From an uncultured Candidatus Saccharibacteria bacterium (GTDB taxonomy: Bacteria > Patescibacteriota > Minisyncoccia > Phycocordibacterales > UBA9973): DNA of 64,000 bases. The stretch covers positions 211,460 through 275,459 of the forward strand of contig CAZWAV010000001.1 in assembly GCA_964631935.1 (NCBI GenBank), in the 5' to 3' direction. Shown in pieces: positions 3,391 to 20,053 of the stretch. Under the pieces are notes generated by a model. That model did no database searches. It was not told the DNA's origin and was given only the letters and a program-made list of their open reading frames with translations. Within the stretch, counting starts at the first letter, position 1. Each line of letters starts with the position of its first letter. Made by a program: the position numbers and the translations under genes.

Positions 3391-4978
3391 TGATATTTGA
3401 AGTTACTGGAATACATCCATATACTTGTAAATTCTCTCTCGTTCCGACCACTTTATCTATAATATTATTGATTATGGCCTTTTTAGCACTAAAACTCAAG
3501 TCTTTTAAGGCTTGTGATGCTTTTTCAGCAAAAGCTTTTACTTCATCTAGTTTAGGTAATTCATTTTCATTTACTTCTTCATTTTCTAAGTAAGCCTTAC
3601 CTATCTGATTATTTAATAAAGCTATCTTTTCTTTTAAAGGATTGATTTGTTCTTTAAGCTGGTCAATAGTAAGGATCCCTGCCCCATATGCTTTAGTGTA
3701 ACGATTTTCTTGATCCTTTAATTTTGCTATTTCTTTTTTAGTTTCTTCAATATTTATTGTCGAAGTTTTATCACCTACTCTTTGATTATTAAGCCAACGC
3801 TCAGCTTGCTTCAATAATAGCTCTGGAGAACTCATGAGATTTGTTATACCTTCCCATACTAGCGGATCCAATATTCTAGCATTAAGTGCTTTTTCTTTAC
3901 ATTTTGGTTTTAATGGAAAACTCTTAACTCTATCTGTACATCTATAATATAAGTGTTTACCTTGTTGTGGACCTTCGCCAGCTCTTCTTTTACCGCAATC
4001 ACACCAAAGTTTTCCTGCAAGAAGATATTCATTCTTAGTATTTCTGGAAGACATCTCAAAATTTGTTCTTAGTCTCTTTTCTGCTCGAAAAAATACATCC
4101 CGGTTTATAAGTTTAAGGGTAGGTATAATAATCCATTCACTTTCAGGTCTAAATTTTCTACTAGATTTTTTATGCTTTCTATATGTGTCTTTTTTCCATG
4201 GTTTTTGTGGTACTACAGAATAGGTAGCTCCATAGTGACCCTCGCCAATATATGTTTTATTTTTAAAAAGTGAACTTAAAGTACTAGTGTTCCAAACACC
4301 TCTTTTACTTTTTCGAGGCTGTATGCCTAATTCCTGAAGTCTTCTAACAACCGCACGTAGAGTTAATCCTTCATCTGCTACCCAGGAAAAAATCTTTTTA
4401 ACAATTTGAGCTTCGTATTTATTTATTTCATAATGACCTTGCATAAAGTCAGCATCACCCCTTTTACCTTTCTTTAATATAAAAGTGTAACCATATGGTC
4501 CTTCAGTAGAAAGAATATGACCTTCATTAGCCTTACGAACTTTGCCAAGTCTAAATCTTTCCTTAATCTTCATTCTTTCATATTCAGTGAATACCCCTCT
4601 CATCTTGTACATAATAATATCCTCATCAGTTTTAGGCTGAGGGATCGTAACAAATAAAACATCAATTTCCAGCTCCTTAAGTTCTTCCATGACTACTTCT
4701 TGCCATGATCCACGTCTAGCTAATCTATCAGGATCATAAATAAGAACTGCTTCCCACTCTTTTTTCTTTGCATCAATACGAAGCTGATCAAGTCCTGGTC
4801 TTACAAGATTGTCACCGGACCATCCTTCATCTAAATATTCTTTCACTATAATGTAACCATTCTTTTTAGCGTGCTCTCTTACACTTGAAAGTTGGGTCTC
4901 AATAGTTCCTTCATTTTCTTGATTTGAAGTTGAGACTCTACCGTATACTGCTATTAATTTATTCTTTTCCATAATCAA
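3329..4978 (-). CDS. Large serine recombinase (resolvase/invertase catalytic domain + recombinase domain + zinc ribbon)
   Basis: N-terminus LIAVYGRVSTSNQENEGTIETQ (catalytic Ser motif), ...YDPDRLARR; 549 aa; Cys-rich zinc-ribbon region (LWCDCGKRR...YYRCTDR) and coiled-coil C-terminus. Last ~20 codons overlap the ychF start. Confidence 0.85.
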   Translation of the reverse strand: MIMEKNKLIAVYGRVSTSNQENEGTIETQLSSVREHAKKNGYIIVKEYLDEGWSGDNLVRPGLDQLRIDAKKKEWEAVLIYDPDRLARRGSWQEVVMEELKELEIDVLFVTIPQPKTDEDIIMYKMRGVFTEYERMKIKERFRLGKVRKANEGHILSTEGPYGYTFILKKGKRGDADFMQGHYEINKYEAQIVKKIFSWVADEGLTLRAVVRRLQELGIQPRKSKRGVWNTSTLSSLFKNKTYIGEGHYGATYSVVPQKPWKKDTYRKHKKSSRKFRPESEWIIIPTLKLINRDVFFRAEKRLRTNFEMSSRNTKNEYLLAGKLWCDCGKRRAGEGPQQGKHLYYRCTDRVKSFPLKPKCKEKALNARILDPLVWEGITNLMSSPELLLKQAERWLNNQRVGDKTSTINIEETKKEIAKLKDQENRYTKAYGAGILTIDQLKEQINPLKEKIALLNNQIGKAYLENEEVNENELPKLDEVKAFAEKASQALKDLSFSAKKAIINNIIDKVVGTRENLQVYGCIPVTSNINVFTEYRNCWSTKRRQIDAF

Positions 4979-5165
4979 TTTTTATTACTTCCTCAAATAG
5001 GATATCAAAAGCTTTATCGACATTATTTTCTAATGAAGCTACATATTTATAATCCAAAAAGGGACAACGATGCGACTCTTTGTTGCTACACATCAAGTCT
5101 CGTTGCCCCTTTTTAGGCTCAAAAAAGTTTTTGTCGCATATTGAATTGATGTGTAGCTCATCCAT
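4959..5165 (-). CDS. Hypothetical small protein (island-associated)
   Basis: 68-aa ORF overlapping the recombinase start by 20 nt; no recognisable motif. Confidence 0.3.
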   Translation of the reverse strand: MDELHINSICDKNFFEPKKGQRDLMCSNKESHRCPFLDYKYVASLENNVDKAFDILFEEVIKIDYGKE

Positions 5166-5179
5166 TATATCATTTCTAA

Positions 5180-5851
5180 TTAATTTTTAGTATTGTTATT
5201 CCCCTTAGATTTATCGTCTACTAGTTTAAAAACCCTATAATGTGACTCTTCACTTTGCTTAGATAGCTTTAAATAGCGTTGATACCTTTTAGTAGGTTTT
5301 CCCTTGTAATGCGTACGTTTTATGCTGTATCTAATAGAGGCTAGATCGTCGTCGTTGATGGGCCGTCCAAATAGCCTAAATATCCTACTAAGGTTTCTAG
5401 ACTCATAAGTGAGGTTATGGCAGTGCCTACAGCCAAAATAGTCTCCGTCTTTATACAGAACCCCGACCCTTCTTCCACAAGGAACACCGCTCTTAGAAAG
5501 AGGACATTTAAACCAATACCGAACTCCTCCGAAGTAACAATGTGTAGTTAGTAGGTTAACTTTATAATCAAAGTCCTTCTTCTCTCCTGTCCTTCGAGAT
5601 GTTTGTGTGTATTGAATACGAAGATAATCTTCATCTCCCATAGTTACAACTTCTACGCCCACCCTGCTTCTTTCACGAGACCAATTATGAGGCCAATATA
5701 TTTCTCCAGACCTTCGTCCAATAAAATACTTATACTTGTAGAGAAAGCTGGTACTAAGTGTTATTAAATTTTCTACTTCTGTTTTACTCATATAATTTGT
5801 ATGTTCACCGAAATCAATAGGGATTGATTTGAGTTTTACTATTAATTCCAC
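5180..5851 (-). CDS. Hypothetical protein with C/H cluster (possible zinc-binding), island-associated
   Basis: 223 aa; CPLSKSGVPCGRRV...GCRHCH cluster; basic C-terminus; no family recognised. Confidence 0.45.
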   Translation of the reverse strand: MELIVKLKSIPIDFGEHTNYMSKTEVENLITLSTSFLYKYKYFIGRRSGEIYWPHNWSRERSRVGVEVVTMGDEDYLRIQYTQTSRRTGEKKDFDYKVNLLTTHCYFGGVRYWFKCPLSKSGVPCGRRVGVLYKDGDYFGCRHCHNLTYESRNLSRIFRLFGRPINDDDLASIRYSIKRTHYKGKPTKRYQRYLKLSKQSEESHYRVFKLVDDKSKGNNNTKN

Positions 5852-5953
5852 AAAAAAGGAGGGTTAGGAGGGGGAAATACAACACGTGGCCACAAAGAGA
5901 AATGCAGTTTACTTTAATAGAGAATTCCTAAATTGCCCTCCTAGCCCACCTAA

Positions 5954-7576
5954 CTAACCAGGTGATAAATCAAAATTAAGAAGATTATTATCAACATCTT
6001 GCTGTATGGATGATGTATTAAGTTTCTGATCCTTGAATCTGACACCAATCCAACAATTAACCTGTTCTATCTTTCCTGTCTCAATATTTTTTATGCTTCT
6101 TTTTGCGCTACCAATTGATATAAACTTAGGTAATTGCTTTCCGATTGTTACTTTTGTCATTCCTACTGGAAGATCATTTTTTGAGGCAAAGTTTATAAAT
6201 TCATGTTCCATTTTATCTTTAGTTATATAAACAGACGTGTCTGAAATTACCTCTAACTCACTATAGGCAAATGTTGCTAAACTTGAGGCAGACATACTCA
6301 TTTCTTTCTTTATCTCATCAGCAGACTGGCTGTAACTAAAGTTTTGACTTTGTAATAGATTATGGAGTCCTTCAAGAGCAAAATTTAATATTCCTGAAAG
6401 CTCTAGGTCCGTAGTAATCTTTTCCAACAAGAACTTGTCTGGTTTATCTGTTCTTTGTTCAAATCTTATTAATATCCACCTACTAAAATACGCATCATCA
6501 TCTGTATCCTTAATCGCTGGAATCTTATTACAAGAAAATGTTATTTTTGCATGGTTTTTAAAGGTAAATAAATCACCGAACTTTTTTTCTCCAGTTACAC
6601 CACCACCCCCAGTAAGCATCTTAAATATTCCATTATCGGTAATATCTTTGAAAGAAAGATCATCATAAATATTTGCATGTTTTTGATATAAGTTAGAAAG
6701 CGCAAATTTATCAGAGCTAAGTCTTTGCAAACTTACACCAGAAATATTTTCTTCACCTAAAAACTTAATCAAAACATTAAGTAGTGTTGTTTTCCCCGTA
6801 TCTCTTTCACCCAATAGTATGATTGCTTTTTTAAATGGATAACTCCTATATAAGCAATATCCAAACCACTCCTGTATTACTTTTACAGAATCATCATCTA
6901 GTATTTGATTCAAAAACTCTTTGAATTTAGGGCAATCAATATCTTTACTAAAATCTACGGGAATCTGATAAAGAAATAGATACTTTGGGGAATGAAACAA
7001 AAATTCTTTTGTCATTAAGTTATATACCCCATTCCTAAAATTTATTAGATGTGTATCAGCATTAAAATCTTTCCTTTCCTTGTATGTCTTATCTTTTATA
7101 TTTCTAATAATTTCCTCCCTGTAATAACTTCCACTTAAATTTTCTGTTATTTCCGATATTTCTCTTTTCACTAAACCATGATCAACTACATATACACCAT
7201 TTTTATAAATGTATATCTCTTTAGTGTTATCTCGGTTCCCGATAGTTTTAATGTTATGCTTATCAATCAAATATAAAGCTATGTCCCAAGTACCTTGAGT
7301 TTTATTTGTTTTTAAACTAGTTTTCAGTTCATCTAGCTTTTTTTCTGTATTCAATTCCTCCTTAGTTATATAGTCCTTTAAGTAGTCAAATAAATGAAGA
7401 AGTTCACTAGTTCTAATTAAGTGATTTTTATCTTTATTCCATCGTAATACCTTCGGCAAGACTACCTTATCCCAATCTGTTTTGGGCGTTGATTTAAGAT
7501 TGTTTCCAATAAAGACTTTATACTCAAGTAACACCTTTTCGTCTATTGGCTTTACTGGATTATTTATTTCATTCAT
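5954..7576 (-). CDS. Phage/plasmid primase-helicase, P4/D5 family (D5_N + SF3 NTPase)
   Basis: Walker A LLGERDTGKTTLLNVL followed by hydrophobic-D/E Walker B region, 540 aa, architecture typical of P4-alpha/D5-like primase C-terminal NTPase. Confidence 0.7.
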   Translation of the reverse strand: MNEINNPVKPIDEKVLLEYKVFIGNNLKSTPKTDWDKVVLPKVLRWNKDKNHLIRTSELLHLFDYLKDYITKEELNTEKKLDELKTSLKTNKTQGTWDIALYLIDKHNIKTIGNRDNTKEIYIYKNGVYVVDHGLVKREISEITENLSGSYYREEIIRNIKDKTYKERKDFNADTHLINFRNGVYNLMTKEFLFHSPKYLFLYQIPVDFSKDIDCPKFKEFLNQILDDDSVKVIQEWFGYCLYRSYPFKKAIILLGERDTGKTTLLNVLIKFLGEENISGVSLQRLSSDKFALSNLYQKHANIYDDLSFKDITDNGIFKMLTGGGGVTGEKKFGDLFTFKNHAKITFSCNKIPAIKDTDDDAYFSRWILIRFEQRTDKPDKFLLEKITTDLELSGILNFALEGLHNLLQSQNFSYSQSADEIKKEMSMSASSLATFAYSELEVISDTSVYITKDKMEHEFINFASKNDLPVGMTKVTIGKQLPKFISIGSAKRSIKNIETGKIEQVNCWIGVRFKDQKLNTSSIQQDVDNNLLNFDLSPG

Positions 7577-8364
7577 ACCTTATTTAATCTTATAATTACT
7601 TATAAGGTCACATTAGATATTAGATTTTCTATAAAAGAAAAATCTACTCATAAATCAACAGGCGATGTCCACTCGACCTGTCGATTTATAAATAGACTTT
7701 AGGTGGACACCTCTTATTTTTTTACAACAAAAAACCAACACATTACGTGCTGGTTTCTTTGTGTTAATTAAAAACTTTACCGAAAAAAGAAACTAGTTCA
7801 CGTAAGTGAATCGTTTATTATTTCAGTGAAATCTTTAATTTTCTCTCTTTTGCCTTTTAACGTCCATTTTTTACCGAGAGACTTCTCGTGGCAGTTTAGA
7901 GAATATAAAAAAGTATCCGATCTCTTTAGAATTAAAGAGGAGCTTTCTACAATTTACGCTTTTACCCAATCTCTATGCATAGGTCAAGGCTCTGGACGCA
8001 CCCCCAGAACAAAAAGAAAAATTGTTCAAAATCTCAAATACATATTTGTTTATATAATGTACCGGCTTGCAATACTTACAAGCTATATTAATTATAACAT
8101 AGTTTTTTCATAAAAAGCAAGTTTGATATATTTTTGCCTATAAAAGTGCTAAAATTGAGTTACAAGTTAATAAGGACCTAACCCTTTAGTTTTTACAGCT
8201 AAAGGTATGGTTAAAAGCCCGATCAGAGTAAAAACCCCAACATTAAGGGATTGCTCTGATCGGCCGTACCGGGAAACTGGTATGAGTGGCGAAAGCTACT
8301 GACCCTTGTGTTGGGATTTTTGTTACCCAAACTATAAGGGCATTATTAATATTTAATAATCCTC

Positions 8365-8610
8365 ATGAAAAATAAATCAGTAAACGGGTTGGTATCTGTC
8401 CTATTAAGCCTGTTTCTTATTGAATCTATTCCATACGTAAGTATCGGCTTAACTATATACGGACTATGGTTAGCTAGTATAGTTTTAAAAAATAAAGAGA
8501 CTAAAAAAAGAGATCGCATAATTTCTATTGTTACGTCAGTAATTGGATATGTCCTTATAATTGGACTTTTTGTTATTTATTTCAAAAATATCCTGCATGG
8601 TGCTAGGTAA
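8365..8610 (+). CDS. Small membrane protein (2 predicted TM helices), hypothetical
   Basis: 81 aa, two long hydrophobic stretches; preceded by a structured leader. Confidence 0.4.
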   Translation: MKNKSVNGLVSVLLSLFLIESIPYVSIGLTIYGLWLASIVLKNKETKKRDRIISIVTSVIGYVLIIGLFVIYFKNILHGAR

Positions 8611-8621
8611 TATAAATACTC

Positions 8622-9038
8622 ATGAAAAAAATCATCATTAGAGAAAACAAAATAGTAGTGTCTATTATATTAGGGAGTATTATAATTGGATTATCTTTTT
8701 ATTTTGGCCAAATAGAGAAACATACACAGCAAGCACAAAAAATAAATCAAGAGGAAAATATAAGATGTCAAAAAATAGCTATAGACAATAAAGATACTAA
8801 GGTATCATTCTATAAATTTGAATATCACTATAACCAAAATACTGGTATGTGTATCTTGGCATATATAAAAAACGATTCCTATGGTGGTAGAAACTATCTG
8901 GTTACTGATTTATTCTCTGGTAAAGATATTTATAATAAAATTGGGATAGAACCTGGTGATGAAGCGGTTAGACTATATAACGAATGGGATCATTTATCTA
9001 ATTTATATTTTTATCAAAAAGAAGTAAGAATACCTTAA
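8622..9038 (+). CDS. Hypothetical membrane-anchored protein
   Basis: 138 aa, N-terminal TM helix (VVSIILGSIIIGLSFYF), 11 nt after previous ORF. Confidence 0.45.
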   Translation: MKKIIIRENKIVVSIILGSIIIGLSFYFGQIEKHTQQAQKINQEENIRCQKIAIDNKDTKVSFYKFEYHYNQNTGMCILAYIKNDSYGGRNYLVTDLFSGKDIYNKIGIEPGDEAVRLYNEWDHLSNLYFYQKEVRIP

Positions 9039-9196
9039 AAGGTTAATTATTAGATTTATCATTAAAAGTAGTAGAATCACGATTTACTATTTTATTGGCT
9101 TCAATTTTAACCTTTTCTATCTGTATATTTGGCGTATCACACCAACCAATCCCAGTTATTTTTATTAAGATTTTTCTAAAAAAGTTTTTCATATAA

Positions 9197-9757
9197 TTAA
9201 AGTGAATATTTTGATTCTTTTATCATGCCTTTAGTAAAATCCTTAAATCCTGGATCTTTTGTATCAATAGGAATACTACTTTCACAAAAAGCTCTTAGAT
9301 TATACTTACCATTATTTTCTGTTTTATATATCCAGGCCCAAAATATAGCATCTGGTTTATCGACAAAGAATAGATCAGCTTGCACTCCACCAGTCTCGTT
9401 ATCTTTTGCACTGAGAATAATAAATTTACTTTTATAATAAGATTTATCAAAATTATCTAATCCACACTTTTTACCGCTATCTAAATTACTCTTCTTTATT
9501 GCATATTCATCAACTCCATTATTCGTTCCATCTAGATATGCATTTAGTCCAGTACGGATATGTTTAATATATTCACTGTTATAAACTTCTTCTTCTGTCG
9601 GATTTTCACTAAATTCGGAATGTTTAGCAAGCTCTGTTTTTTGAGAATTAACCTTTGTTTCACTTGATCTGTTTTTTGACATTATAATGTAAATTGCAAT
9701 AATTACCAAAACTAATATGGCGATAACAATATAGAGTGTTTTAGTTTTTCTTTCCAT
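9197..9757 (-). CDS. Hypothetical membrane-anchored protein
   Basis: 186 aa; N-terminal TM (LYIVIAILVLVIIAIYIIM) then soluble domain. Confidence 0.5.
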   Translation of the reverse strand: MERKTKTLYIVIAILVLVIIAIYIIMSKNRSSETKVNSQKTELAKHSEFSENPTEEEVYNSEYIKHIRTGLNAYLDGTNNGVDEYAIKKSNLDSGKKCGLDNFDKSYYKSKFIILSAKDNETGGVQADLFFVDKPDAIFWAWIYKTENNGKYNLRAFCESSIPIDTKDPGFKDFTKGMIKESKYSL

Positions 9758-9807
9758 ATGTAGATTATAACAACATTAAATAAAAGCTGCTATTACAACT
9801 TTTTATA

Positions 9808-10743
9808 TTAATTCCATTCAAATCCTCTACCGAAATGACCCCAGTTTGAAGTTTCTGATAGTTTTACTTCTCCTAATTTTAGATGCTCATAAATCCCTTT
9901 TGGTGTTAGATCATATCCTTCAATTCCCATCTCTAGTCCATCTACTACAACTACTGCCATGATTGGTTCACTCCTACCTATCGCATATGCGAGCTTTGTA
10001 TATACTTCCTTGGCTTTGTACTTCTTAAGGAAATCTACGGCTATTTTACGTGCCATATAGGCCCCTGAACGGTCTACTTTTGTGTAATCCTTACCAGAGA
10101 ATGACCCTCCACCAATAGGCACTTCTGGGCCATAATTATCAATTATTAGCTTCCTACCAGAGAGACCTGTATCAGCATCAAATCCCCCTTGGCTCCACTG
10201 GCCTGCAGGATTAATTAGATACTCTTCAGACTCTATTATACTTTTCACTAAGTTTAGTAATTCATCATTCTTTGTATTCTGAAAACTAGCGACAACAGTT
10301 TTAACCTTACTATTCTCTATTGTTACTTGGGTCTTACCGTCATATGGATAAACCTTAAATATTTTCTGACACAAATCTCTAGCTAGAACATATTCAAGAG
10401 GAAGATATTCATCTGTTTCTCTTGTAGCGTAACCTTTCATTATCCCTTGATCACCAGCACCACCAGTGTCGACACCTTGAGCAATTTCTTTACTTTGTAA
10501 AACGATATTAGAAATAATTCTAAAATTATCTCCAACGATATTTTTGATGACTGTTTCAACATCTGGATTAGCTTTTGAAGTTACTTCCCCATTAATAGTA
10601 ATAAGTCCATGACCTCCCATCACTTCTATTGCACAGCGACTATTTTTATCTCCTTCTAGATATGCATCTAAAATACCATCTGCAATAAGATCACAGATCT
10701 TATCTGGATGCATTGGGCTTACAAACTCTGCTGTCTTTTTCAT
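9808..10743 (-). CDS. metK: S-adenosylmethionine synthetase (methionine adenosyltransferase), short form
   Basis: SPMHPDKICDLIAD, GGAGDQGIMKGYA, INPAG, GLSGRKLIIDNYG, GGGSFSGKDYTKVDRSGAY, YAIG, GHFGR all align to bacterial MetK motifs; only 311 aa. Confidence 0.85.
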   Translation of the reverse strand: MKKTAEFVSPMHPDKICDLIADGILDAYLEGDKNSRCAIEVMGGHGLITINGEVTSKANPDVETVIKNIVGDNFRIISNIVLQSKEIAQGVDTGGAGDQGIMKGYATRETDEYLPLEYVLARDLCQKIFKVYPYDGKTQVTIENSKVKTVVASFQNTKNDELLNLVKSIIESEEYLINPAGQWSQGGFDADTGLSGRKLIIDNYGPEVPIGGGSFSGKDYTKVDRSGAYMARKIAVDFLKKYKAKEVYTKLAYAIGRSEPIMAVVVVDGLEMGIEGYDLTPKGIYEHLKLGEVKLSETSNWGHFGRGFEWN

Positions 10744-10751
10744 ATTAAACT

Positions 10752-10905
10752 AAAAAATTCCTCATAATGAGGAAAGATAGATGACTAGTCTTATCTTTCC
10801 GAATAGTACCTTCGTACTACTTGGTTGGAATTAGCACCTTACATTTGCAGGTTGCTGAACGGATCATTGAGCCAATACTCTACTCGTTCTCTTGATACAA
10901 CTATC
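10752..10905 (-). promoter_or_regulatory. SAM-I (S-box) riboswitch with intrinsic terminator in metK leader
   Basis: Minus-strand RNA reads GUUGUAUCAAGAGA...GGCUCAAUGAUCC...CAGCAACC...GGUGCUAAUUCC...AAAGAUAAG (S-box conserved blocks), followed by UUCCUCAUUAUGAGGAAUUUUUU terminator immediately upstream of metK. Confidence 0.6.
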
Positions 10906-10930
10906 TAGTTGTAAGTATATTATAGCATTA

Positions 10931-11062
10931 TTATAAATCCTGCCAAATCTCTAATGCATCATCTGTATCCAATCCATTCTCATCAGCAAATTCCTGAAGT
11001 TCTTCTGCTTCTTCAAGACTCAAATCATTATCTTTAGCTATTTCGAATGTTTCTTCATCCAT
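10931..11062 (-). CDS. Possible 43-aa acidic peptide (MDEETFEIAKDNDLSLEEAEELQEFADENGLDTDDALEIWQDL), last gene of defence-like operon
   Basis: ORF below track cutoff; starts 2 nt after DUF2726 stop; no independent support. Confidence 0.25.
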   Translation of the reverse strand: MDEETFEIAKDNDLSLEEAEELQEFADENGLDTDDALEIWQDL

Positions 11063-11064
11063 AT

Positions 11065-11565
11065 TTACTTCAATTTTTCTAATACTAATCTCTTAATTTC
11101 TTCTTTATTAAAAGATCCATTATTCCCGAAACGTAATAATGGCATTCCTGCCTCTTGCAGCATTCTTTCCACTTCACTGTCTCGCTCTATTCTATCTGAT
11201 CTTTCGTGCGATCTATCATCGAGCTCGATTGCGAGAAGTGGTTTGATATATGCTTTATCACAGATAACAAAATCTACAGATTTTCCATTTATATGACTAA
11301 ACGCACCCTTCCAACTCTGGCCAGTTATTTTATGATCCAAGATTGTTGGTAAATGAACTTGAGTAAATACTTGATATTGTTTCCCTACTACTTCGACAAG
11401 AATATCAAAAAACTCGTGTTCTGGTCTACTTATTAAGAAATCTTTTCGCTTATACTTATATATGCTTTTTTTCTTACCTTCTTTGTATTCTGAGTCGTTA
11501 GTAAAAAGCTTTATAACTAGTCCAATAGCAATTATTATTCCTATGATTATGTAAAATTTAGTCAT
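11065..11565 (-). CDS. DUF2726-family protein (restriction-endonuclease-like fold), N-terminal membrane anchor
   Basis: 166 aa; TM helix FYIIIGIIIAIGLVI then ...DFVICDKAYIKPLLAIELDDRSHERSDRIERDSEVERMLQEAGMPLLRF typical of DUF2726/NERD-like nuclease-fold proteins. Confidence 0.6.
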   Translation of the reverse strand: MTKFYIIIGIIIAIGLVIKLFTNDSEYKEGKKKSIYKYKRKDFLISRPEHEFFDILVEVVGKQYQVFTQVHLPTILDHKITGQSWKGAFSHINGKSVDFVICDKAYIKPLLAIELDDRSHERSDRIERDSEVERMLQEAGMPLLRFGNNGSFNKEEIKRLVLEKLK

Positions 11566-11566
11566 G

Positions 11567-12316
11567 TTATTTTTCTAATTCTTTTCTTGCATTCCAATAA
11601 GCACACCAGTCACAATGCTCTCCGGATTCTGGTATGGTATCATTGTCTAAACATTTTTTTATCTCAAACAATGTTTTTTCTACCCATGAATCATTACCTT
11701 TATGTTCAATTAAGTTAACATCAAAATCAATTCGCTTATCGAAAGCCTCTCTATCCATTTTCCCAGTACAATAGACAAAATAACCAATATCAGATACCTT
11801 GAGCCCATTCTGTCTCAAAAGCCATTGATACACCTCCATTTGACGTTTATAGCCATCTTGCCACTCTTTATCCAGTGCCTTTACGGCTTCATCCTTTGCA
11901 GTAGCTTTATAATCCACAACAATATATTCATCTTTTCCATTGATCCATAAATCGTCAATTGCACCGGTTACCATGAGCCCTGTTGGTTCATGTAAATATC
12001 TAATACCTCCAAAATTCCTTCGCCACTCATCAAGCTCTTCGTGAGACATAGGTCGTGCATCTATTCCATATTCTTTTTGTAGCGGATGCTGTTCATTCTT
12101 CACGCGGTATGAATCAAACTCTTGTTTAAGAAGATGGTCCACTGCGCTGTTTATGGAAAAAGGAAATCCAGGTACTCTTTTTACACCGAGTTTGTTATCT
12201 ATATAGAAACATCGTGGACACTCTTTGAATAAATCGATTTTAGAACGAGAAAGTTTCCAGTTCTTTCCTCCGTAATTCCACGACTCCATTCTGTTTGGGT
12301 TATAATATTCCGACAT
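11567..12316 (-). CDS. Cas4/RecB-family PD-(D/E)xK nuclease with Fe-S cysteine tetrad (PDDEXK_1/DUF83-like)
   Basis: Motifs GAIDDLW (II), VVDYKATAK (III), QMEVYQW (QhxxY), Cys pairs CPRC (N-term) and CDWC (C-term); 249 aa. Confidence 0.7.
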   Translation of the reverse strand: MSEYYNPNRMESWNYGGKNWKLSRSKIDLFKECPRCFYIDNKLGVKRVPGFPFSINSAVDHLLKQEFDSYRVKNEQHPLQKEYGIDARPMSHEELDEWRRNFGGIRYLHEPTGLMVTGAIDDLWINGKDEYIVVDYKATAKDEAVKALDKEWQDGYKRQMEVYQWLLRQNGLKVSDIGYFVYCTGKMDREAFDKRIDFDVNLIEHKGNDSWVEKTLFEIKKCLDNDTIPESGEHCDWCAYWNARKELEK

Positions 12317-12318
12317 AG

Positions 12319-12978
12319 TTATTTTTTAATTATTGATTCATTCTCCTTATATGCAGAAAAAATTACCTCTAAAGTATAAAAGGAATTCTGAAGTTTAACT
12401 ATATCTAAGTATATATCAATCAAATCCCTTTTATTTATATTTTTTAATATTTCTTTATAATTTAATTTTATTTTAAGGCTATTTTGAGGATATTTAAAAC
12501 TTGTATTATCACTATCTTCAATCTCAAAATTTTTATTTATAATATTTTTAAATGTTTCAAGATTCTGATATTTATTAACAATCATCATTAAATCATATAT
12601 TTTATCTATGATATTATCATGACTTTTGTTTACAAAAACCCAATATTCATTATCCTTATTTTTTTCATAAGTTGTATTAATTACTTTTTTAATTGAACTT
12701 AAATTAGTTAAATTCATTACATCTCTTAATATTTGAAGATTATCATGAGTTTCATATTTTTTAATCAAAGCCTTTTGTTCTAATAAAACAATAAAAAATT
12801 TAAGATACAACTCAATTCCATGTTTTATATTAAAAATCATTGATATGTATAGATCCTCAATCTCAGACTCTACATTATTATATTTTTTATATTGCATCTC
12901 ACTACAAGCCAAAGAAGCTATATTTAAATAATTTCTAGCAAAAATAGACCAGTTTTCTTTTATATCATTGTGTTTCAT
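12319..12978 (-). CDS. Hypothetical protein (N/K/I-rich), operon member
   Basis: 219 aa; no recognisable motif; 4-nt overlap with MTase gene stop, 2-nt gap to nuclease gene. Confidence 0.5.
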   Translation of the reverse strand: MKHNDIKENWSIFARNYLNIASLACSEMQYKKYNNVESEIEDLYISMIFNIKHGIELYLKFFIVLLEQKALIKKYETHDNLQILRDVMNLTNLSSIKKVINTTYEKNKDNEYWVFVNKSHDNIIDKIYDLMMIVNKYQNLETFKNIINKNFEIEDSDNTSFKYPQNSLKIKLNYKEILKNINKRDLIDIYLDIVKLQNSFYTLEVIFSAYKENESIIKK

Positions 12979-15900
12979 TTTTTACTTGAATTTTCTATAA
13001 TTTCAATTTCTTCTGGAGTAAGTTTATAGAGTTTATAAACCAATTCATCTATTTGATGCTCGAGTTTTTTAGTATCATTATCCTTATTTTGTTTTTTATG
13101 ATCAATAACTTGATTAACCAAACCTTCTATTGCTTTTTTTATTTCCAAATTAGTTTCAGCTGGAATAATTGGAAGCTCGTTTACGAATATTTTTGAGATA
13201 TCATATCCTGCATTACCCAAAGATGCACCAATTAATTTGAAGTAGAAAAAATTTAACTTTGAATTTAATATGCCTAATAAGTACTTCAAGTTATTACCAA
13301 TAATAAAGAAACATTTTTGGTTTACAAGAACCCCTGAATCATCATATGCAGCGGCAAATTCTTTATTAATATTTGGATAAATAATTTTATTTTGCTCCAT
13401 TTCTTTAAGATAACGTTCGGAAGGGTTTTGATCTAATTCGATCCAGTTATGATCACCTCTTATAACTTGTGCCCGACTTTCTAAAATTTCTTTATAGTGA
13501 CTTAAATGTTTTTTTATTGCTGGGTATTTATCGATAATTTTATGTGTACCATAATATGTTGTTATTAAATATTTATGTTGCCAATCATAGCTATATTTAG
13601 CAACATCCTTTCCTCTTAAAATTGGTTTAATAAAAACTTCTGAATTTTTATCATTCTTAATTAATTCATTTCTCTTGGCTTCATCTACAATAAAAACACC
13701 TTCCTTTTCACCTGAACTATTTTTAGTATCGTTTCTGCCTGTCAAAATACCATAATTAATTTTTATTGAAGTCCAATCTTTTAATTTTAAACCCCTTGCT
13801 TCAATAGATGCTTTTAAATTAGCAACACTTTGGTCAATTAAGGCGAATGAATTTTCTCCTAAGTCAGACTGTTTCATTTTGTATAAAATATCATCAATCC
13901 GTTGTCCATATTTTAAATAATGTTCTCCGTTTTGTCCTCCTTTTCTAATAATAATTATATTTGTGTCTACAGTAGCAGTTTCAAATTGACCTCCACCCAA
14001 ATCAATTAATACTTCAATTTTAGTCTTGTTTTTTAACAATAGCCTAAGCTTATCACCATATCTTGAACGCATCCATTTGTTACTTGTTATATATGTGAGG
14101 GTTCCGTATTCAGAAAGTAAGTTATAACCTAGTTCATAAAAATAACAGTAAATATCAGCGGTAGTATTTCCAACGTCGTAATTAGAACACAATTCGTCTT
14201 TAAATTTTTTAGGTAAGTCACGGTGTCGAATATATGGCGGATTACCTATCACAATGTCAAAACCACCTTTTTGCTCAAATACATCAGCAAAATGAAGCTT
14301 CCAAAGAAAAAATGGTTTGATCTTGGATTTCTTAAATCCTTCAATTTTGCTCAATTCTGAAGTCTTACCTTGTTCTATTAATGTAGCTTCAATAAGCTCC
14401 CATTCAAGTCTCTCTATTTCTTTTTTAATACTTTCTTTTTTATCTTTCTTGTTTGTCTCAAAAAAATGCTTTTGTAATAACTTTAATTGATCTGCTTTGA
14501 ATTTAGATTCCTTGTGTTTATCAAAATCAAAAAGTCCAGAAACTTCAATATTAACTTTCTCTGTTTTCGTAAGTTTTTTCAGTTGATCATGTATACTTTT
14601 GGCCTCAGTGTCTAGTTCAACTTTCTTTATAGGTGTTAATTTATTATCTGCATTAAGTCTAAAATACTCTTTTTGCAAAACAGACTGTTTCTTTTTTAAG
14701 TCTTCAATTTGTTTTTCTTTATCTGTATCTATAGTCTTTATTATATTTTCATCAAAAAGTTTTACGCCTTCATATTCCTCAAGCAATGAATTACCTTGCA
14801 TAATCTTGTAATCCAAATTCGGAAGCACTGGCGGAGCAATCTTAGGGTCATTTGATTCAAATTCAACTATAAGAGCAAGCCAGAACCGAAGTTTAGCTAT
14901 TTCCACTGCTCCTGGCTCAAGATCAACGGCGTAAATACAATTTTCAAGAGTTTCTTTTTTGATATCATAAAGTGATAATTCTTTCCCTGTATCATTAGTC
15001 TTATGAAGGAAGTTTGTATTCAGATAATGCCTCACAGAAGATATCTCGTTTAGCATACCCATAGGAAATGCCCCAGAACCGACAGCCGGGTCAACAATTT
15101 TTACATTACGAAGTGAGACATCAACTTTTTCTGCAATATCTTTAAGTTCTTGCATCCTCTTTATGATTTCTGTTTTTTTATAATCATCAACTAGTATAGA
15201 TAGATCAGTATCTTTATTTTCAAATAGTTTCCTAATTCTATCTTCAGGAGCAGTATCTTCGGAAACTAAGTGCTGAATTAAACTTTCTCGGCACATATAG
15301 TGCACTATCTCTCTAGGAGTATAGAAAGCTCCTTTATCCTTCCTATCCTTAACCTCAAGAAGATTTTCAAAAATCTTACCGAGCATTTCTGGATCAACAG
15401 ATATTTCCTGGTCAGATGGTGTGTTTTCATCTACGGTAAAATTATATTGGTCAAAGAAATCTAGTAATTTACCCAAAACTTCATTATGAATGTTTATCTC
15501 TGTATTTTTCCAATCATACACACTTTCAAATAAACCTCCATTTAAAAATGGAATTCTACAATTTAACTGCTCAAAAAAATCATCCTCACCTCGTTTCTCA
15601 GCTAAAGCCTCGTAAAACAAAGGCTCAAGATAATCATCAAAATAATTTTGATTAGTTTTTCTACAGGTTTCAAATAAAGATCGCAAATATCCTTGATCTC
15701 CAGTACCCCAATTTTCGTTCGGTCGTACTCCGAGCCAACCTTTTTTTTGAACAAAATATAAAAAGACGATTTGTCCCATTAATTTTTTAACAAAATCAGG
15801 GGTCGTGGAAATACCTGTTTTAACGACTATATTTTGGAATTCATTATTATCTTCAAAATCTTCAAGTATTTCTATAAATAAATCACGATAATTTTTAAAG

Positions 15901-16436
15901 AACTCCTTTGTAACTTTTTCTACTGAAAATAGTTCTTTTAATTCTTTAAAATTTGTAAATTTAAGAGAAGCTACTTGTTGTAGAAAAGTAACATTTTTCT
16001 GTTGTTTAGATACAAAATAAGTGAATCTCCTGAAAGTGCTGTAATTTACTTTTGTACCAACATAATCAGCATAAATCAAACTCATACGAAACCCTCCCTT
16101 ACTATCGTAATAAACAAAAATCCCTGCTCTAGCTTTTGGGAAGTTCTTTAATATTTTTTTCCCTAAATCGTATTGAGTTTTTCTACTTGCTCGTTCATTT
16201 AATGGTGTAAGTGACCGTGAACAAATAACTATAATATTTACATTATCTTCAAGATCGAAATCCCCTAGCTGTGAAAAATCAGTAAATTGTTTGTCGTTAA
16301 ATGTTGGAAGTGGGTTTTGTTGAACTCTAAAAAAATCATGACTCTTAAGTATCTCTGCTAATGAAGCAGCAGAGAAATCATCAATTAGTTTTTGGAATTT
16401 AACCTGGCTCATAATATTACATATTTCTATTTTCAA
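12975..16436 (-). CDS. Large gamma-class N6-adenine DNA methyltransferase (Eco57I/type IIG/PglX/DrmMI-like), 1153 aa
   Basis: Motif I VDPAVGSGAFPMGML followed downstream by motif IV FDIVIGNPPYI; ~400-aa N-terminal and ~350-aa C-terminal extensions of unknown role. Confidence 0.85.
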   Translation of the reverse strand: MKIEICNIMSQVKFQKLIDDFSAASLAEILKSHDFFRVQQNPLPTFNDKQFTDFSQLGDFDLEDNVNIIVICSRSLTPLNERASRKTQYDLGKKILKNFPKARAGIFVYYDSKGGFRMSLIYADYVGTKVNYSTFRRFTYFVSKQQKNVTFLQQVASLKFTNFKELKELFSVEKVTKEFFKNYRDLFIEILEDFEDNNEFQNIVVKTGISTTPDFVKKLMGQIVFLYFVQKKGWLGVRPNENWGTGDQGYLRSLFETCRKTNQNYFDDYLEPLFYEALAEKRGEDDFFEQLNCRIPFLNGGLFESVYDWKNTEINIHNEVLGKLLDFFDQYNFTVDENTPSDQEISVDPEMLGKIFENLLEVKDRKDKGAFYTPREIVHYMCRESLIQHLVSEDTAPEDRIRKLFENKDTDLSILVDDYKKTEIIKRMQELKDIAEKVDVSLRNVKIVDPAVGSGAFPMGMLNEISSVRHYLNTNFLHKTNDTGKELSLYDIKKETLENCIYAVDLEPGAVEIAKLRFWLALIVEFESNDPKIAPPVLPNLDYKIMQGNSLLEEYEGVKLFDENIIKTIDTDKEKQIEDLKKKQSVLQKEYFRLNADNKLTPIKKVELDTEAKSIHDQLKKLTKTEKVNIEVSGLFDFDKHKESKFKADQLKLLQKHFFETNKKDKKESIKKEIERLEWELIEATLIEQGKTSELSKIEGFKKSKIKPFFLWKLHFADVFEQKGGFDIVIGNPPYIRHRDLPKKFKDELCSNYDVGNTTADIYCYFYELGYNLLSEYGTLTYITSNKWMRSRYGDKLRLLLKNKTKIEVLIDLGGGQFETATVDTNIIIIRKGGQNGEHYLKYGQRIDDILYKMKQSDLGENSFALIDQSVANLKASIEARGLKLKDWTSIKINYGILTGRNDTKNSSGEKEGVFIVDEAKRNELIKNDKNSEVFIKPILRGKDVAKYSYDWQHKYLITTYYGTHKIIDKYPAIKKHLSHYKEILESRAQVIRGDHNWIELDQNPSERYLKEMEQNKIIYPNINKEFAAAYDDSGVLVNQKCFFIIGNNLKYLLGILNSKLNFFYFKLIGASLGNAGYDISKIFVNELPIIPAETNLEIKKAIEGLVNQVIDHKKQNKDNDTKKLEHQIDELVYKLYKLTPEEIEIIENSSKK

Positions 16437-19400
16437 CAGCTATTACTACTTCTTGTGTATTTAGTTTTGTTGCTGACTTAATTTTGTCTAAATAATCAAA
16501 ACCGAGATTATTTTTAAGTTCACTTAAGGTTTCTAATATTATTTTAGAGCTGTCTTTTGAATTCTCAATTGTAGGCATATCAGCCAATCGACGAAGTGTA
16601 AAAGTGCTTAACGTCTGGTAATCAGTAAGATCGTCAAGTAAGGTTCGGACAAAAGGAGCAAAGTCTTGTACATCTTCATTAAAGCTTTCAATATTTTGTA
16701 AAAGTGAGTTCAGATTATTAAAAGATTTAGTTTCAATAGCCATTTGTGATGAGTTTTGAGTTCTCTGCTCTATGATTTTTGAAGTTTCATAATTCTCCCA
16801 AAACATAGAACTTCTTGGAATAGATTTTTCATCTGGAGTAGTCTTTATTCTTTCAATAACTTCTTCTAAATTTAAGTCACGTACTTCTTTTTCGTCATTA
16901 ATCATACCTCTGACAAAAAGGGGTCTCCCTTTACGAATAAAAACAAGTAGATCATTTTCATTAAATTTTTTAGCAACTTTAATACGAGCAGGTAATTTCT
17001 TTATTTTTTCGATAACCTCAGGGTGTTTAGTCTTTATTTCATAATATAGACGACGGATTGTGGTAATGAAACTTTCTACTTCAAGTGCTTCTGGGTTTTG
17101 TTGCAACTTCGTAAAGAGTCCAGCAGCAGATGGATTCTCGTCTGGGCTAAATATCTTAGAGTCTTCTCCAAGAGTGCTATGAATCATGAACATCTTATTT
17201 TCAGCAATCTCTCTATTCTTTACGTACTCAGAACCTTTAATTGTTGGAAAGAAATTATAAATATATAAATTTTCAAAAACTTTTTGCCCTATACGGTTTA
17301 TACGACCAACACGTTGGATAACTCTAGTAGGGTTCCATGGAATATCATAGTTTACAACAGCACCACTTTTACTTAAGTTAAAACCTTCTGAAATTTTATC
17401 TGTACCAACTAATATAGAGTAAGTTTCTTCCTGTTTCTTTTGACTAGCATCAAAGTTTTTTAATACTTCATCAATCCGACCAGTAGATGTACTTCCGTAC
17501 ACAGACAACACCTTTCCTTTAAATTTTTTATCAAGACTTTCGAAAACATGTTTTGCGGTATCAGCATATTCAGTAAAGATCACAATCTTTCTATCTGGTT
17601 CACCCTTATTTTCTTTTGTATTTAATATTTCTTCAATTCTATGTGACAAAGCTAATACTTTTGGATCATTTTCTACTAACTTTAATTCATCTAATTCCGT
17701 TTTAATTTTCTCAAATAGCTCTTTATCTTTTTGTAAATCACCTAAGAATTTATCTTTTTCTTTAAAAGAATCAATGTTGTATTTCTTAGACTTCTTATCA
17801 TTAACTAAATCCTCTATAGACTCCGACATTTTAACCATACACTCTATAACTTCATCTTCATCCCCATCTGAAATCGCTTCAATAAGCTTTCTATCTAAAG
17901 TAAACTTACCTCCTGTTTTTTCAATAAAATCTAACGATTTACATGTTATCGCATAAAAATTATTTATACTTTCTGCAAATGCATTAAATGAGCTTTCAAA
18001 ACGTTTTATTAGTAATCTTCGCATGAAGTGAAACAAGTTTGTCTGAGAAATATATTCTAAATTTTCTTCTTCTCCAATAATTCTCTCTCCCTCAGCTCGT
18101 CCTTTTTCATAAACAGATGGACGATACATTGCACCGTTAAACAAACCATCTTCGCCAAAATAATCACTTATAACTCGATCATAAAAATCAGACTGTTCTT
18201 TAGAAAGCTCATAATAAACTTCTCTGGGATCAGAAATTTTAGATAAGTCTTTAACTTCCTTTGAATACTCAGGGTCATTCTTCAAATCGATTCTATTTCG
18301 ACGAATAACCACAGGTTCAATTATTTGGCGTATCCTATTGGAAATATACTTGATACGACCATTAACTTTACCGGTTTCAACTACAGCACTTCCAAACATA
18401 GTTGCATAAGTAGAAATAGCTTTCTCTCTTTTATTTTTATCTGTTGAATTATAGTCTTTATTAATATCACTTAATTTTTTAAACATGTTTTTATAATCTC
18501 TAAATTCAATTGAAAGATTTGGCGCAATAGTGAGCTGCGATTTACCTGGGACAATAAACAACTTTAATAGAGCAAATATATCTGCTGGGGAGTTATTAAA
18601 GGGTGTAGCCGTTAATAAAATTACCTTGCGATTTTTACAAATCATACTTAGTAACTCATAGGCTTCTGTATCTTGGTTACGAAAACGATGAGCTTCATCA
18701 ACAACAATAACATCTATATCGTTTCGTTCTTGAACAAATTTCAATGTACTACGTAGCGTAGCAAGGCCACATGATCTAACTTCCCAACCATACAATTCAA
18801 AGTCTTCTAAATATTTTTTCCAACCTGAAGATTTATTATCATCACCAACCAAGCCAGGAGGACAGATAACAAGACCTCTTTTACCCAATTGCTTTGCAAC
18901 CATGCCTGTAATAACACTCTTACCAAGTCCCACAACGTCAGCTATAATTGCTCCTCCTGACTCCTCAATCATTCCTAGGGCTTGAGAAGCTGCGTCTAGT
19001 TGATATTTGTATGTTATATAGCCATTCTTTTCTAATAGCTCTTTGATGGAACTAGAAACTTCAACTTGAGACTGCGCATCAAGATAGTGTTGGAGGATAG
19101 AAGCATAAGCTTCAAAGGGAGTTGGTTCAGCAATAAGAGTCTCTTGTTTTAATAAGTTAATTAATTCTTGTTTATATTGTTCTGTTTCTGTAATCTTTAT
19201 AGAACTTTCCCAGAGCTCATCAAAATATTTATCAGCGTCTTCTGTGCCAAAATCACCTAATTCTACATTAAATTCATGCTGATTTGAAAGTCCAGAGCGA
19301 GTTAGGTTACTACTTCCTGTTATAAAAACAGATTTTCTAATAGTTGCCAGTTGGTCTTTTATTTTAAATATATAAAGCTTTGCATGATTTGGTTCTAATG

Positions 19401-19779
19401 TTTTACGAATTTGTAGCTGGCCACTATTAATCAAATCAATAAAGAATAATATTTTCTTCTCAAAATCTTCATTATCAAATTCATCACTAGCTAATGAACT
19501 TTTTACAGAACCAAAGTAATTTTTAATTTTCTCTCTATTTGTTAAGTTGTTGCTATTTTCTGAATACTCGAAAAGACCGTGAACCCCCTTGTCTGCATTA
19601 AGTCCAACTAACACATCCATTTTAATATCAGGACGATCTTTTATGCTTTCATACAATTCAGCAATTCCTGAAAAATAGAAAAAACCTACAAGAAACTTCA
19701 GTTCTTTGCTGTTTTCGATTAATTCAACAAGTCGCTTTTTTAGATCCTTCCCTGCCTCATTCGTTATAAAATTAGTCAT
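16417..19779 (-). CDS. PLD-family nuclease domain fused to SNF2-family helicase, 1120 aa
   Basis: N-terminus: NHAKLYIFKIKD...ITGSSNLT (single HxK...GSxN PLD motif). Helicase: VIVVDEAHRFRN (DEAH), ILLTATPFNN, C-terminal helicase motifs (VGTDKISEGFNL, QRVGRINRIGQ). Confidence 0.85.
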   Translation of the reverse strand: MTNFITNEAGKDLKKRLVELIENSKELKFLVGFFYFSGIAELYESIKDRPDIKMDVLVGLNADKGVHGLFEYSENSNNLTNREKIKNYFGSVKSSLASDEFDNEDFEKKILFFIDLINSGQLQIRKTLEPNHAKLYIFKIKDQLATIRKSVFITGSSNLTRSGLSNQHEFNVELGDFGTEDADKYFDELWESSIKITETEQYKQELINLLKQETLIAEPTPFEAYASILQHYLDAQSQVEVSSSIKELLEKNGYITYKYQLDAASQALGMIEESGGAIIADVVGLGKSVITGMVAKQLGKRGLVICPPGLVGDDNKSSGWKKYLEDFELYGWEVRSCGLATLRSTLKFVQERNDIDVIVVDEAHRFRNQDTEAYELLSMICKNRKVILLTATPFNNSPADIFALLKLFIVPGKSQLTIAPNLSIEFRDYKNMFKKLSDINKDYNSTDKNKREKAISTYATMFGSAVVETGKVNGRIKYISNRIRQIIEPVVIRRNRIDLKNDPEYSKEVKDLSKISDPREVYYELSKEQSDFYDRVISDYFGEDGLFNGAMYRPSVYEKGRAEGERIIGEEENLEYISQTNLFHFMRRLLIKRFESSFNAFAESINNFYAITCKSLDFIEKTGGKFTLDRKLIEAISDGDEDEVIECMVKMSESIEDLVNDKKSKKYNIDSFKEKDKFLGDLQKDKELFEKIKTELDELKLVENDPKVLALSHRIEEILNTKENKGEPDRKIVIFTEYADTAKHVFESLDKKFKGKVLSVYGSTSTGRIDEVLKNFDASQKKQEETYSILVGTDKISEGFNLSKSGAVVNYDIPWNPTRVIQRVGRINRIGQKVFENLYIYNFFPTIKGSEYVKNREIAENKMFMIHSTLGEDSKIFSPDENPSAAGLFTKLQQNPEALEVESFITTIRRLYYEIKTKHPEVIEKIKKLPARIKVAKKFNENDLLVFIRKGRPLFVRGMINDEKEVRDLNLEEVIERIKTTPDEKSIPRSSMFWENYETSKIIEQRTQNSSQMAIETKSFNNLNSLLQNIESFNEDVQDFAPFVRTLLDDLTDYQTLSTFTLRRLADMPTIENSKDSSKIILETLSELKNNLGFDYLDKIKSATKLNTQEVVIAVENRNM

Positions 19780-20053
19780 AAATCATAGGATATCAGGTAA
19801 TAAAAACTGTATCGATTATACCACTGAAAGCCTAATTTATAAAGCTGTTTTAAATATAAGAAATATAACAAATCTAGCTGTAAGGTAAATTTTTTTTAAG
19901 TGGTTTAAACCCATAATCCACCCCACTCTTAAGCGGTGGAGGGATCTTTAGAACGAGGGAGAAAGGAATAAAATGTGGGGTTGTACCCATACCATTCCTA
20001 TAGATAATGACATGGATAGAATATAGCAGAAATGGCGATACTTTCAAAGAATA

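Follow-up and report, generated by a model that had tools for sequence, protein, structure and literature searches.

Six tightly packed genes on the minus strand of a 64-kb stretch of DNA (the window, from contig CAZWAV010000001.1 of an uncultured Candidatus Saccharibacteria bacterium) encode, in order, a helicase-nuclease, a DNA methyltransferase (MTase) and products of 219, 249, 166 and 43 amino acids (aa). With moderate confidence, this locus is read as a restriction-modification (R-M) cassette that was gained by horizontal transfer and is linked to accessory genes, each with a distribution of its own; the mechanisms are those predicted for each part. The cassette is made up of the gene for a PLD/HKD nuclease-SNF2 helicase fusion (PLD-SNF2), the gene for an N6-adenine MTase and a stand-alone HEPN-T-like gene, which encodes the 219-aa protein. 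The genes for the 219-aa protein, the 249-aa Cas4-like nuclease and the 166-aa DUF2726 protein do not form a dedicated trio; each accompanies many different systems of phage defence as an accessory in its own right. The locus is a variation on known themes, with each part being of a known kind. Coordinates are window positions and L-numbers are labels of the compared loci or contigs.

The three small genes had been presented in an initial annotation of the sequence as partners of the MTase/helicase pair. Homologues of all three are found mostly without that pair, the outcome which the annotation itself had named as counting against its proposal. The closer homologues of the HEPN-like gene are in type I and type IIG systems, the pair is directly upstream of the Cas4-like gene at one of 78 loci (L011) and at none of the 80 loci of a genome scan, and DUF2726 genes are present in five other arrays. 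The alternative offered at the time, an unrelated adjacent module, is too simple, as all three genes recur specifically beside varied R-M and defence genes.

Genomic context of the Cas4-like gene

Defence genes are found on one side of the Cas4-like gene. The context analysis covered 78 non-redundant Cas4-like loci. The gene directly 5' of the Cas4-like gene shares its strand in 69 of these, and the median gap is 9 bp. A labelled defence gene is present at position -1 in 37% of the loci, at positions -2 to -6 in 9-19%, and at positions +1 to +6 in 0-2%. The genes at position -1 include those for reverse transcriptases (RTs), HsdM/R/S, type IIG and type III-like R-M enzymes, ResIII, OLD, HerA, UvrD, PIF1, a Schlafen-type helicase, Fic/RhuM, and Mrr. 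Among the Pfam families counted in the two genes upstream, the commonest are ResIII (10), RVT_1 (8), N6_Mtase (5), and Eco57I (5), with AAA_15, OLD, and HerA. In the same census on the downstream side, UDG (6) and TspO (5) are the commonest, and MgtC, GTPases, AlaRS, and RpoB occur as well.

Within the clade sharing at least 85% identity, to which the window belongs, a defence gene is among the six upstream genes at all 18 of the loci with enough upstream sequence, and 14 of the 18 have an R-M gene upstream. The usual layout has an R-M system first, an accessory that may or may not be present next (RT, OLD, HerA, or UvrD, and in the window HEPN), and the Cas4-like gene last. In one subgroup (L023, L025, L026, L029, L030, and L034), downstream synteny is kept, with Cas4-like sequences 94-98% identical and TspO 66-72% identical, while the upstream gene alternates between those for a reverse transcriptase, OLD, HerA, and UvrD. 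An unfused UvrD + Cas4-like pair is present in L034. The combination of PLD-SNF2, MTase, and Cas4-like genes is carried by L011 and L012, the former having come from a separate protein look-up. A DUF2726 gene follows the Cas4-like gene in only one of the compared loci (L033).

Reverse-transcriptase modules are located directly upstream of the Cas4-like gene in L016, L019, L032, L039, and L040, and in L023, L031, and L035. Each is either a 500-aa RT or three small genes (95-130 aa, ~120 aa) with a 305-aa RT behind them, and the modules often come after an R-M system.

It is concluded that the Cas4-like gene is resident, slowly evolving, and at the 3' edge of an exchangeable defence array, and that it encodes a predicted end-processing nuclease. 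No earlier description of an association with defence on one side only was found, in the literature searched, for the solo Cas4-like and DUF2726 genes from the candidate phyla radiation (CPR). The association as quantified here for the Cas4-like gene bears on the 2017 question of what solo Cas4 does.

Sequence and distribution of the Cas4-like nuclease

The 249-aa protein matches PF12705 (PDDEXK_1) with 54.3 bits (gathering score 22, E 2.4e-14) across residues 22-242 and profile positions 2-244 of 247. Of the profile searches proposed in the initial annotation, those for PDDEXK_1 and DUF2726 gave scores above the cut-offs, whereas Cas_Cas4 (PF01930), at 21.6 bits, was just short of its cut-off of 22.7. 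The score against TIGR00372 is 27.7 bits versus a cut-off of 65. The Cas4/RecB-type motifs recognised at that time are indeed present and are invariant in 83 homologues (C33-x2-C36, C235-x2-C238, D121/D122, D135-Y-K137, and Q159-x-E161-x-Y163). In the alignment, 77 of the 249 positions are at least 97% identical. An AF2 model of the protein (pLDDT 79.6) matches RecE, the AdnAB nuclease domain, Cas4, MGME1, and Exo5.

The four cysteines of the Fe-S cluster in Cas4 have the canonical arrangement C...CxxC-x5-C. The window protein differs from Cas4 in having CxxC...CxxC and in scoring below the cut-offs of the Cas4 models. It is like solo Cas4 (PMC5704561) in being a RecB-family nuclease with four cysteines that is encoded outside CRISPR-cas in a CPR genome. 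Unlike CRISPR-associated Cas4, its gene has R-M genes, DUF2726, and metK as neighbours, and no CRISPR repeat array is present in the 64-kb window, as had been reported. That this location outside a CRISPR context is unusual, as was also suggested, does not hold. In CPR and DPANN genomes, solo Cas4 was reported to be over-represented (Hudaiberdiev et al. 2017, PMC5704561), and there are over 8000 homologues of the window protein at 78-93% identity in the protein collection. Solo cas4 is inherited mainly vertically, solo Cas4 adjoins R-M genes in DPANN archaea, and UvrD-Cas4-like fusions occur in type III R-M contexts (PMC5704561).

Across 80 species-representative Patescibacteria genomes, the Cas4-like proteins have 59-96% identity to that of the window. 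Similarity at the DNA level stops at the ends of the open reading frame (ORF). The phage collection contains no match to the protein, and the only one in IMG/VR is weak and partial, with 39% over 60 residues. One metagenome-assembled genome (MAG; JAKQDP01, L027 and L037) has the Cas4-like gene twice, at 91% and 86% identity to that of the window, and its L037 copy is directly after a type IIG methyltransferase gene. In a distant clade (L043, L066, L067, L089, L092, and L093), a uracil-DNA glycosylase (UDG)-family gene is within two genes downstream. Three of these loci (L089, L092, and L093) also have an Mrr_cat gene preceding the Cas4-like gene, with a sub-threshold ATP-cone match in L089. 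The UDG and Mrr_cat neighbours are a hint of a repair context for this distant clade.

The 219-aa HEPN-like protein

Asparagine and lysine account for 25.1% of the 219-aa protein, which has no match in Pfam, NCBIfam, PADLOC, or PHROGs. The family is uncurated, with no entry in any of these four resources. It is also rare: in a set of 5.8 billion proteins, it forms 8 clusters at 90% identity. A search with the family profile identified 310 clusters at 50% identity, nearly all of them stand-alone proteins of ~200-240 aa.

The initial annotation saw no recognisable motif in this protein. At the level of the family there are HEPN-T-like motifs, N-x-K-H-G-x-E-x3-K and D-x2-N-x2-F-[RK]-Y-P-x-N. Across 34 diverse members, W10, H53, E56, K60, H78, D155, N158, and P164 are invariant, while N50, K52, F161, and Y163 are nearly so. 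The Ex3[KR] motif is represented by E56-x3-K60, invariant in the 34 sequences, and the invariant histidines are H53 and H78. Pfam HEPN (PF05168) is matched by 9 of the 34 members, with a best E of 1e-5, and no other family is matched by more than two. The best of these, P0165, scores 22.5 bits (gathering score 22) over profile positions 3-112 of 117. A phmmer search of the PDB with P0165 returned nothing. Comparison of the family with the DUF4145 protein of L006 using hhalign found no relation. The AF2 model of the 219-aa protein is all-helical (pLDDT 77.6, pTM 0.80) and its highest-probability Foldseek match is the HEPN domain of sacsin (prob 0.57, E ~1), which is not significant. The protein has a single domain, with no ATPase domain, and there is a ~75-residue insert between the core helices.

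In type I systems (L005, L006, L096, L097, L101, L127, and L131), the closer homologues are encoded between hsdM and hsdS, and in L007 the gene directly follows that for a type IIG enzyme. None of these has an adjoining Cas4-like or DUF2726 gene. The neighbours of the more distant members are mixed, including other DNA methylases, DpnI, RhuM, HTH proteins, and resolvases. The HEPN-like family is absent from IMG/VR. Neither the HEPN-like nor the Cas4-like gene looks like a typical viral gene.

In some HEPN-T and AbiV variants, Ex3[KR] and the basic residue are retained and the histidine is displaced N-terminally; HEPN-T clusters with R-M operons, and links to R-M systems are described for at least 16 clades of HEPN (Anantharaman et al. 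2013, PMC3710099). The 219-aa family shares with HEPN-T (PF05168; AF0298-type) and AbiV the Ex3K, the basic residue, and a histidine further towards the N-terminus. It also resembles the R-M-associated HEPN proteins of that study in being a stand-alone helical protein embedded in R-M operons. In the seven type I loci, the genes of its homologues, like that of PrrC, are inside hsd operons, although the window gene follows a different type of MTase. Unlike PrrC/EcoprrI, the 219-aa protein has neither the ABC-ATPase domain of PrrC nor an Rx4-6H motif. Its identification as a divergent HEPN-T-like accessory of R-M methylases is moderately supported. The most likely role, following the PrrC paradigm, would be in a second line, as an effector or a regulator. 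The family, which is uncurated, linked to R-M and HEPN-like with a motif that departs from the canonical one, thus offers a candidate for a backup effector.

The DUF2726 protein and the 43-aa ORF

A match of 100.7 bits to PF10881 (DUF2726; gathering score 24.7, E 6.6e-29) was found for the 166-aa protein, with weak matches to MTES_1575 and DUF559. It has a hydrophobic N-terminal segment (residues ~4-21) followed by a lysine-rich stretch, bearing out the earlier description of a DUF2726 protein with a transmembrane anchor. There are 858 homologues in the CPR, at 62-90% identity, which share the hydrophobic N-terminus, the lysine-rich linker, and invariant E49, H71, D98, E114, D116, D117, and H120. 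Based on the positive-inside rule, the nuclease domain is predicted to face the cytoplasm.

In all five of the further loci (L134-L137 and L139), the DUF2726 gene is at the end of a same-strand defence array. The five arrays include a Dcm-type methylase; an EcoRI methylase with Fic and GmrSD-HNH; S24 and a caspase; a methylase with SIR2, HerA, and type III Res; and a methylase with ResIII. A defence array also ends in DUF2726 in L033, following the Cas4-like gene. The membrane-tethered DUF2726 shows the same positional pattern as the Cas4-like gene.

DUF2726 has been described as a REase-fold DNase in Abi-type fusions (PMC3710099). The window protein is like the DUF2726/Vsr-like REase-fold nucleases in its strong match to PF10881 and its conserved acidic and histidine residues. 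It is unlike the Abi-type fusions in being short and stand-alone, with an N-terminal membrane anchor, and the CPR form differs in recurring at the end of defence arrays, followed by an acidic 43-aa ORF. This ORF, which the initial annotation missed, is 42% aspartate and glutamate, with a pI of 4.05. Homologues with 60-77% identity adjoin DUF2726 in L139, are near DUF2726 in L134, and in L064 are just upstream of the Cas4-like gene. In L022 and L027, weaker matches (43%) are on the downstream side of that gene. That the product is an inhibitor or a DNA mimic is a guess.

The PLD-SNF2 and methyltransferase pair

Domain scans covered five operon proteins, the 43-aa ORF being outside those scans. 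The 1120-aa protein has Pfam matches to PLDc_2 (residues 112-190), RE_NgoFVII, and SNF2-rel_dom and Helicase_C (340-831), and contains the motifs HAKLYIFKIKD (HxK), GLGKS, and DEAH. In PADLOC, it matches 'HKD+Snf2' C3a139 (6.9e-36) and DrmD (2.9e-40); against the NCBIfam DrmD model it scores 172.5 bits versus a cut-off of 610. It is the predicted restriction (translocase-nuclease) subunit. The MTase matches Eco57I (6.3e-39), TaqI_C (3.1e-17), and N6_Mtase in Pfam and REase_MTase_IIG (1e-165) in PADLOC, and its NPPY motif is present as 'GNPPY'. It is either 1153 aa from a TTG start or 1145 aa from the ATG at 16412, with the latter, which is also given by the JGI gene calls, being the more likely. 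The PLD-SNF2 and Eco57I-type MTase are treated as a two-gene, ATP-dependent, R-M-like module.

The combination of an HKD/PLD nuclease N-terminal to a Swi2/Snf2 helicase with an N6-adenine MTase is shared with Type-2 BREX-related (BR) systems. The definition of these systems includes genes for a DUF499 AAA+ ATPase and DUF3780, and HEPN is a common auxiliary or backup effector in BREX and BREX-related systems (PMC12839542). However, neither DUF499 nor DUF3780 is matched by the five proteins scanned. Likewise, the core pair resembles DrmD/DrmMI of class 1 DISARM, a system that also comprises DrmA, DrmB, and DrmC, but DUF1998 (DrmA/DrmB) is not present in the five. The scores of the window proteins against the DrmD and PglX models are far under the cut-offs. 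The operon also differs from BREX-related and DISARM systems in being flanked by metK downstream and a cupin gene upstream, the latter having a Pfam Cupin_2 match in L003, a contig identical to the window. The labels class 1 DISARM and Type-2 BREX-related were rejected, as the defining genes are missing.

Composition, proposed function, and alternative explanations

The GC content is 19.7% for the 219-aa gene, 30.2% for the MTase gene, 32.0% for the helicase gene, and 32.1% for DUF2726, with the Cas4-like gene and metK each at 37.1%, in a genome of ~37% GC. These gene-to-gene differences suggest a mosaic origin of the operon. They also suggest that an imported R-M and HEPN cassette (20-32% GC) is beside a resident Cas4-like gene (37%). 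The DUF2726 gene is intermediate, while the Cas4-like gene looks resident.

On the reading of the locus as an acquired cassette joined to accessory genes, the MTase would methylate its own recognition sites on the host DNA, and unmodified sites on incoming DNA would license the PLD-SNF2 enzyme to translocate and cut. The HEPN-like protein would be made in step with the MTase, and the methylase complex may restrain it as a second-line effector or regulator, in the manner of PrrC. Instead of Rx4-6H, it may use a non-canonical site made up of Ex3K, R/K162, and H53 or H78. The Cas4-like protein may be a generic DNA-end-processing exonuclease of Patescibacteria that resects or degrades the ends made by whichever restriction or defence module lies upstream, and it may serve in repair. 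DUF2726 would be a nuclease tethered at the cytoplasmic face of the membrane and common to many defence arrays.

To our knowledge, Patescibacteria often lack RecBCD/AddAB and CRISPR, and most CPR bacteria lack CRISPR and depend on R-M-type immunity. The organisation of CPR defence islands is poorly known. If the association with defence genes is functional, then the Cas4-like and DUF2726 genes would be useful markers for new defence cassettes in CPR genomes.

Several observations weigh against the reading of the locus as a cassette joined to accessory genes. The defence labels came from the upstream genes of the same loci, with the downstream positions as the sole control. The Cas4-like gene evolves like a core gene, and its distant homologues (~60%) adjoin FtsH, TGT, and UDG. 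At L062, L064, L065, and L067, which have no abutting upstream gene, there is a -10-like box ~7 nt before the Cas4-like ATG, which suggests leaderless transcription and a possible promoter of its own. Due to this core-like evolution, the housekeeping contexts, and the possible promoter, the link between the Cas4-like gene and defence genes could be purely positional. For DUF2726, the contexts examined were seven in all. With regard to HEPN, the Rx4-6H motif is absent, there being no histidine 4-6 residues past the basic residue in F-[RK]-Y-P-x-N. The window's own protein has no match to Pfam HEPN, the family profile found nothing but coiled-coil noise among PDB sequences, and Foldseek of the model against the PDB and BFVD gave no significant match. 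Some of the distant family members are beside housekeeping genes.

It is possible, if somewhat unlikely, that Cas4-like and DUF2726 play no part in defence and are housekeeping genes that serve DNA repair or nucleotide salvage, that their upstream flank is permissive for cassette exchange, and that co-transcription is incidental. This would fit with the very strong conservation of the Cas4-like protein, which is unlike that of arms-race genes, the confinement of DNA similarity to its ORF, and the synteny of ordinary downstream genes while the upstream gene swaps. The housekeeping and UDG contexts of distant homologues, the -10-like box at several stand-alone loci, the GC content equal to that of metK, and the mainly vertical inheritance of solo cas4 (PMC5704561) point the same way. 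However, the inserted genes are nearly always co-oriented and abut the start codon, and no conserved non-coding motif, integrase, or recombination-site motif was found at the junction between the cassette and the Cas4-like gene. The two Cas4-like copies in one MAG also argue against this alternative, as do the fusion of PF12705 nucleases to UvrD in type III R-M (PMC5704561) and the unfused pair in L034. It is distinctly unlikely that, in Patescibacteria, the Cas4-like and membrane-tethered DUF2726 proteins are fixed, shared downstream effectors with interchangeable coupled modules plugged in front of them, these being type I, III, and IIG R-M, PLD-SNF2, reverse transcriptases, OLD, HerA, and UvrD. 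If true, immunity would here have a modular architecture in which the end-processing nuclease is shared.

A dedicated system of five (now six) genes, with the 219-aa, Cas4-like, and DUF2726 proteins as obligate partners of the MTase/helicase pair, is very improbable. Such a system would account for the tight translational coupling, for the three genes shared by L011 and L012, and for L098, where a HEPN-like and a PLD-SNF2 gene are a few genes apart. The same six-gene block is also present in four other contigs, though their 99.6-100% DNA identity indicates that these are from the same strain or species. No other locus unites all of the genes, and the co-occurrence data largely refute the idea: the pair directly precedes the Cas4-like gene in L011 alone, Cas4-like is followed by DUF2726 in L033 only, and the closer HEPN-like homologues are in type I and IIG operons without the other two genes. 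The GC contents of the genes also differ widely. It is unlikely, too, that the 219-aa protein is not a nuclease but a non-catalytic helical adaptor or regulator of N6-adenine MTases, such as a modulator of methylase assembly or specificity or an anti-restriction sensor. The missing Rx4-6H motif would be explained, as would the consistent position of such genes, which directly follow genes for methylase subunits or lie among them and have start codons that overlap the preceding stop. Against this, the nine invariant polar or aromatic positions, H53, E56, K60, H78, D155, and N158 among them, stand out from a mean column identity of 33% and are active-site-like, and HEPN-T and AbiV variants with an alternative histidine exist (PMC3710099).

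Organisation of the operon

The whole run of genes is read as one operon (Table 1). As read from the sequence, the MTase stop and the 219-aa start overlap in ATGA, the 219-aa and Cas4-like genes are separated by 2 nt, the Cas4-like and DUF2726 genes by 1 nt, and the DUF2726 stop and the start of the 43-aa ORF by 2 nt. The three small ORFs of the initial annotation are thus real and coupled to the MTase/helicase pair, as it had claimed. All three have conserved homologues, and therefore none is a chance ORF. A SAM riboswitch and a promoter-like site (10946-10919) precede metK, which places the end of the operon after the 43-aa ORF. The metK product is short (311 aa), and this riboswitch-led gene is directly 3' of an operon for a SAM-consuming methyltransferase.

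Table 1. Features of the operon and its flanks in the window.
Feature	Position	Strand	Basis
PLD/HKD nuclease-SNF2 helicase fusion, 1120 aa	16417..19779	-	Pfam, PADLOC, NCBIfam, motifs
Eco57I/TaqI_C-type N6-adenine DNA methyltransferase	12975..16436	-	Pfam, PADLOC, NPPY motif
Divergent HEPN-T-like protein, 219 aa	12319..12978	-	Family-level Pfam HEPN matches, motifs, context
Solo Cas4-like (PF12705) RecB-family nuclease, CxxC...CxxC, 249 aa	11567..12316	-	Pfam, motifs, model
Membrane-tethered DUF2726 (REase/Vsr-like fold) predicted nuclease, 166 aa	11065..11565	-	Pfam, invariant residues
Acidic conserved ORF, 43 aa, last gene of the operon	10931..11062	-	Homologues near DUF2726/Cas4-like genes
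Promoter-like site 5' of the helicase gene	19815..19843	-	TTTATA-17-TATAAT with TG, 10/12 matches; consensus match only
SAM riboswitch before metK, outside the system	10788..10901	-	Rfam RF00162, 53.4 bits versus gathering score of 44.4
metK	9808-10743	-	Pfam

Surrounding region

The segment from 3199 to 9134 looks like part of an integrative element, with genes for a serine recombinase (3329-4978) and a D5_N primase (5954-7576). A LOOT RNA (RF03000, 90 bits) is at 8175-8300 on the plus strand. In L001, L002, and L004, a Prim-Pol/AAA_25 module replaces the segment 5824-9134, and in L001 and L002 the recombinase region is retained, with 94.7% identity. Synteny with these three contigs, which are 99.6% identical, breaks at ~20002, just upstream of the helicase promoter region, where a gene for a giant fn3-rich protein replaces the cupin and miaA genes. 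No att-type direct repeats or tRNA were found near this break. The block 3200-20002 was considered as one integrative element, the ends of which could not be defined. At the start of the window, a 21-nt tandem repeat of ~7 copies (54-221) is inside ORF 9-341 and would encode an acidic, heptad-like peptide repeat.

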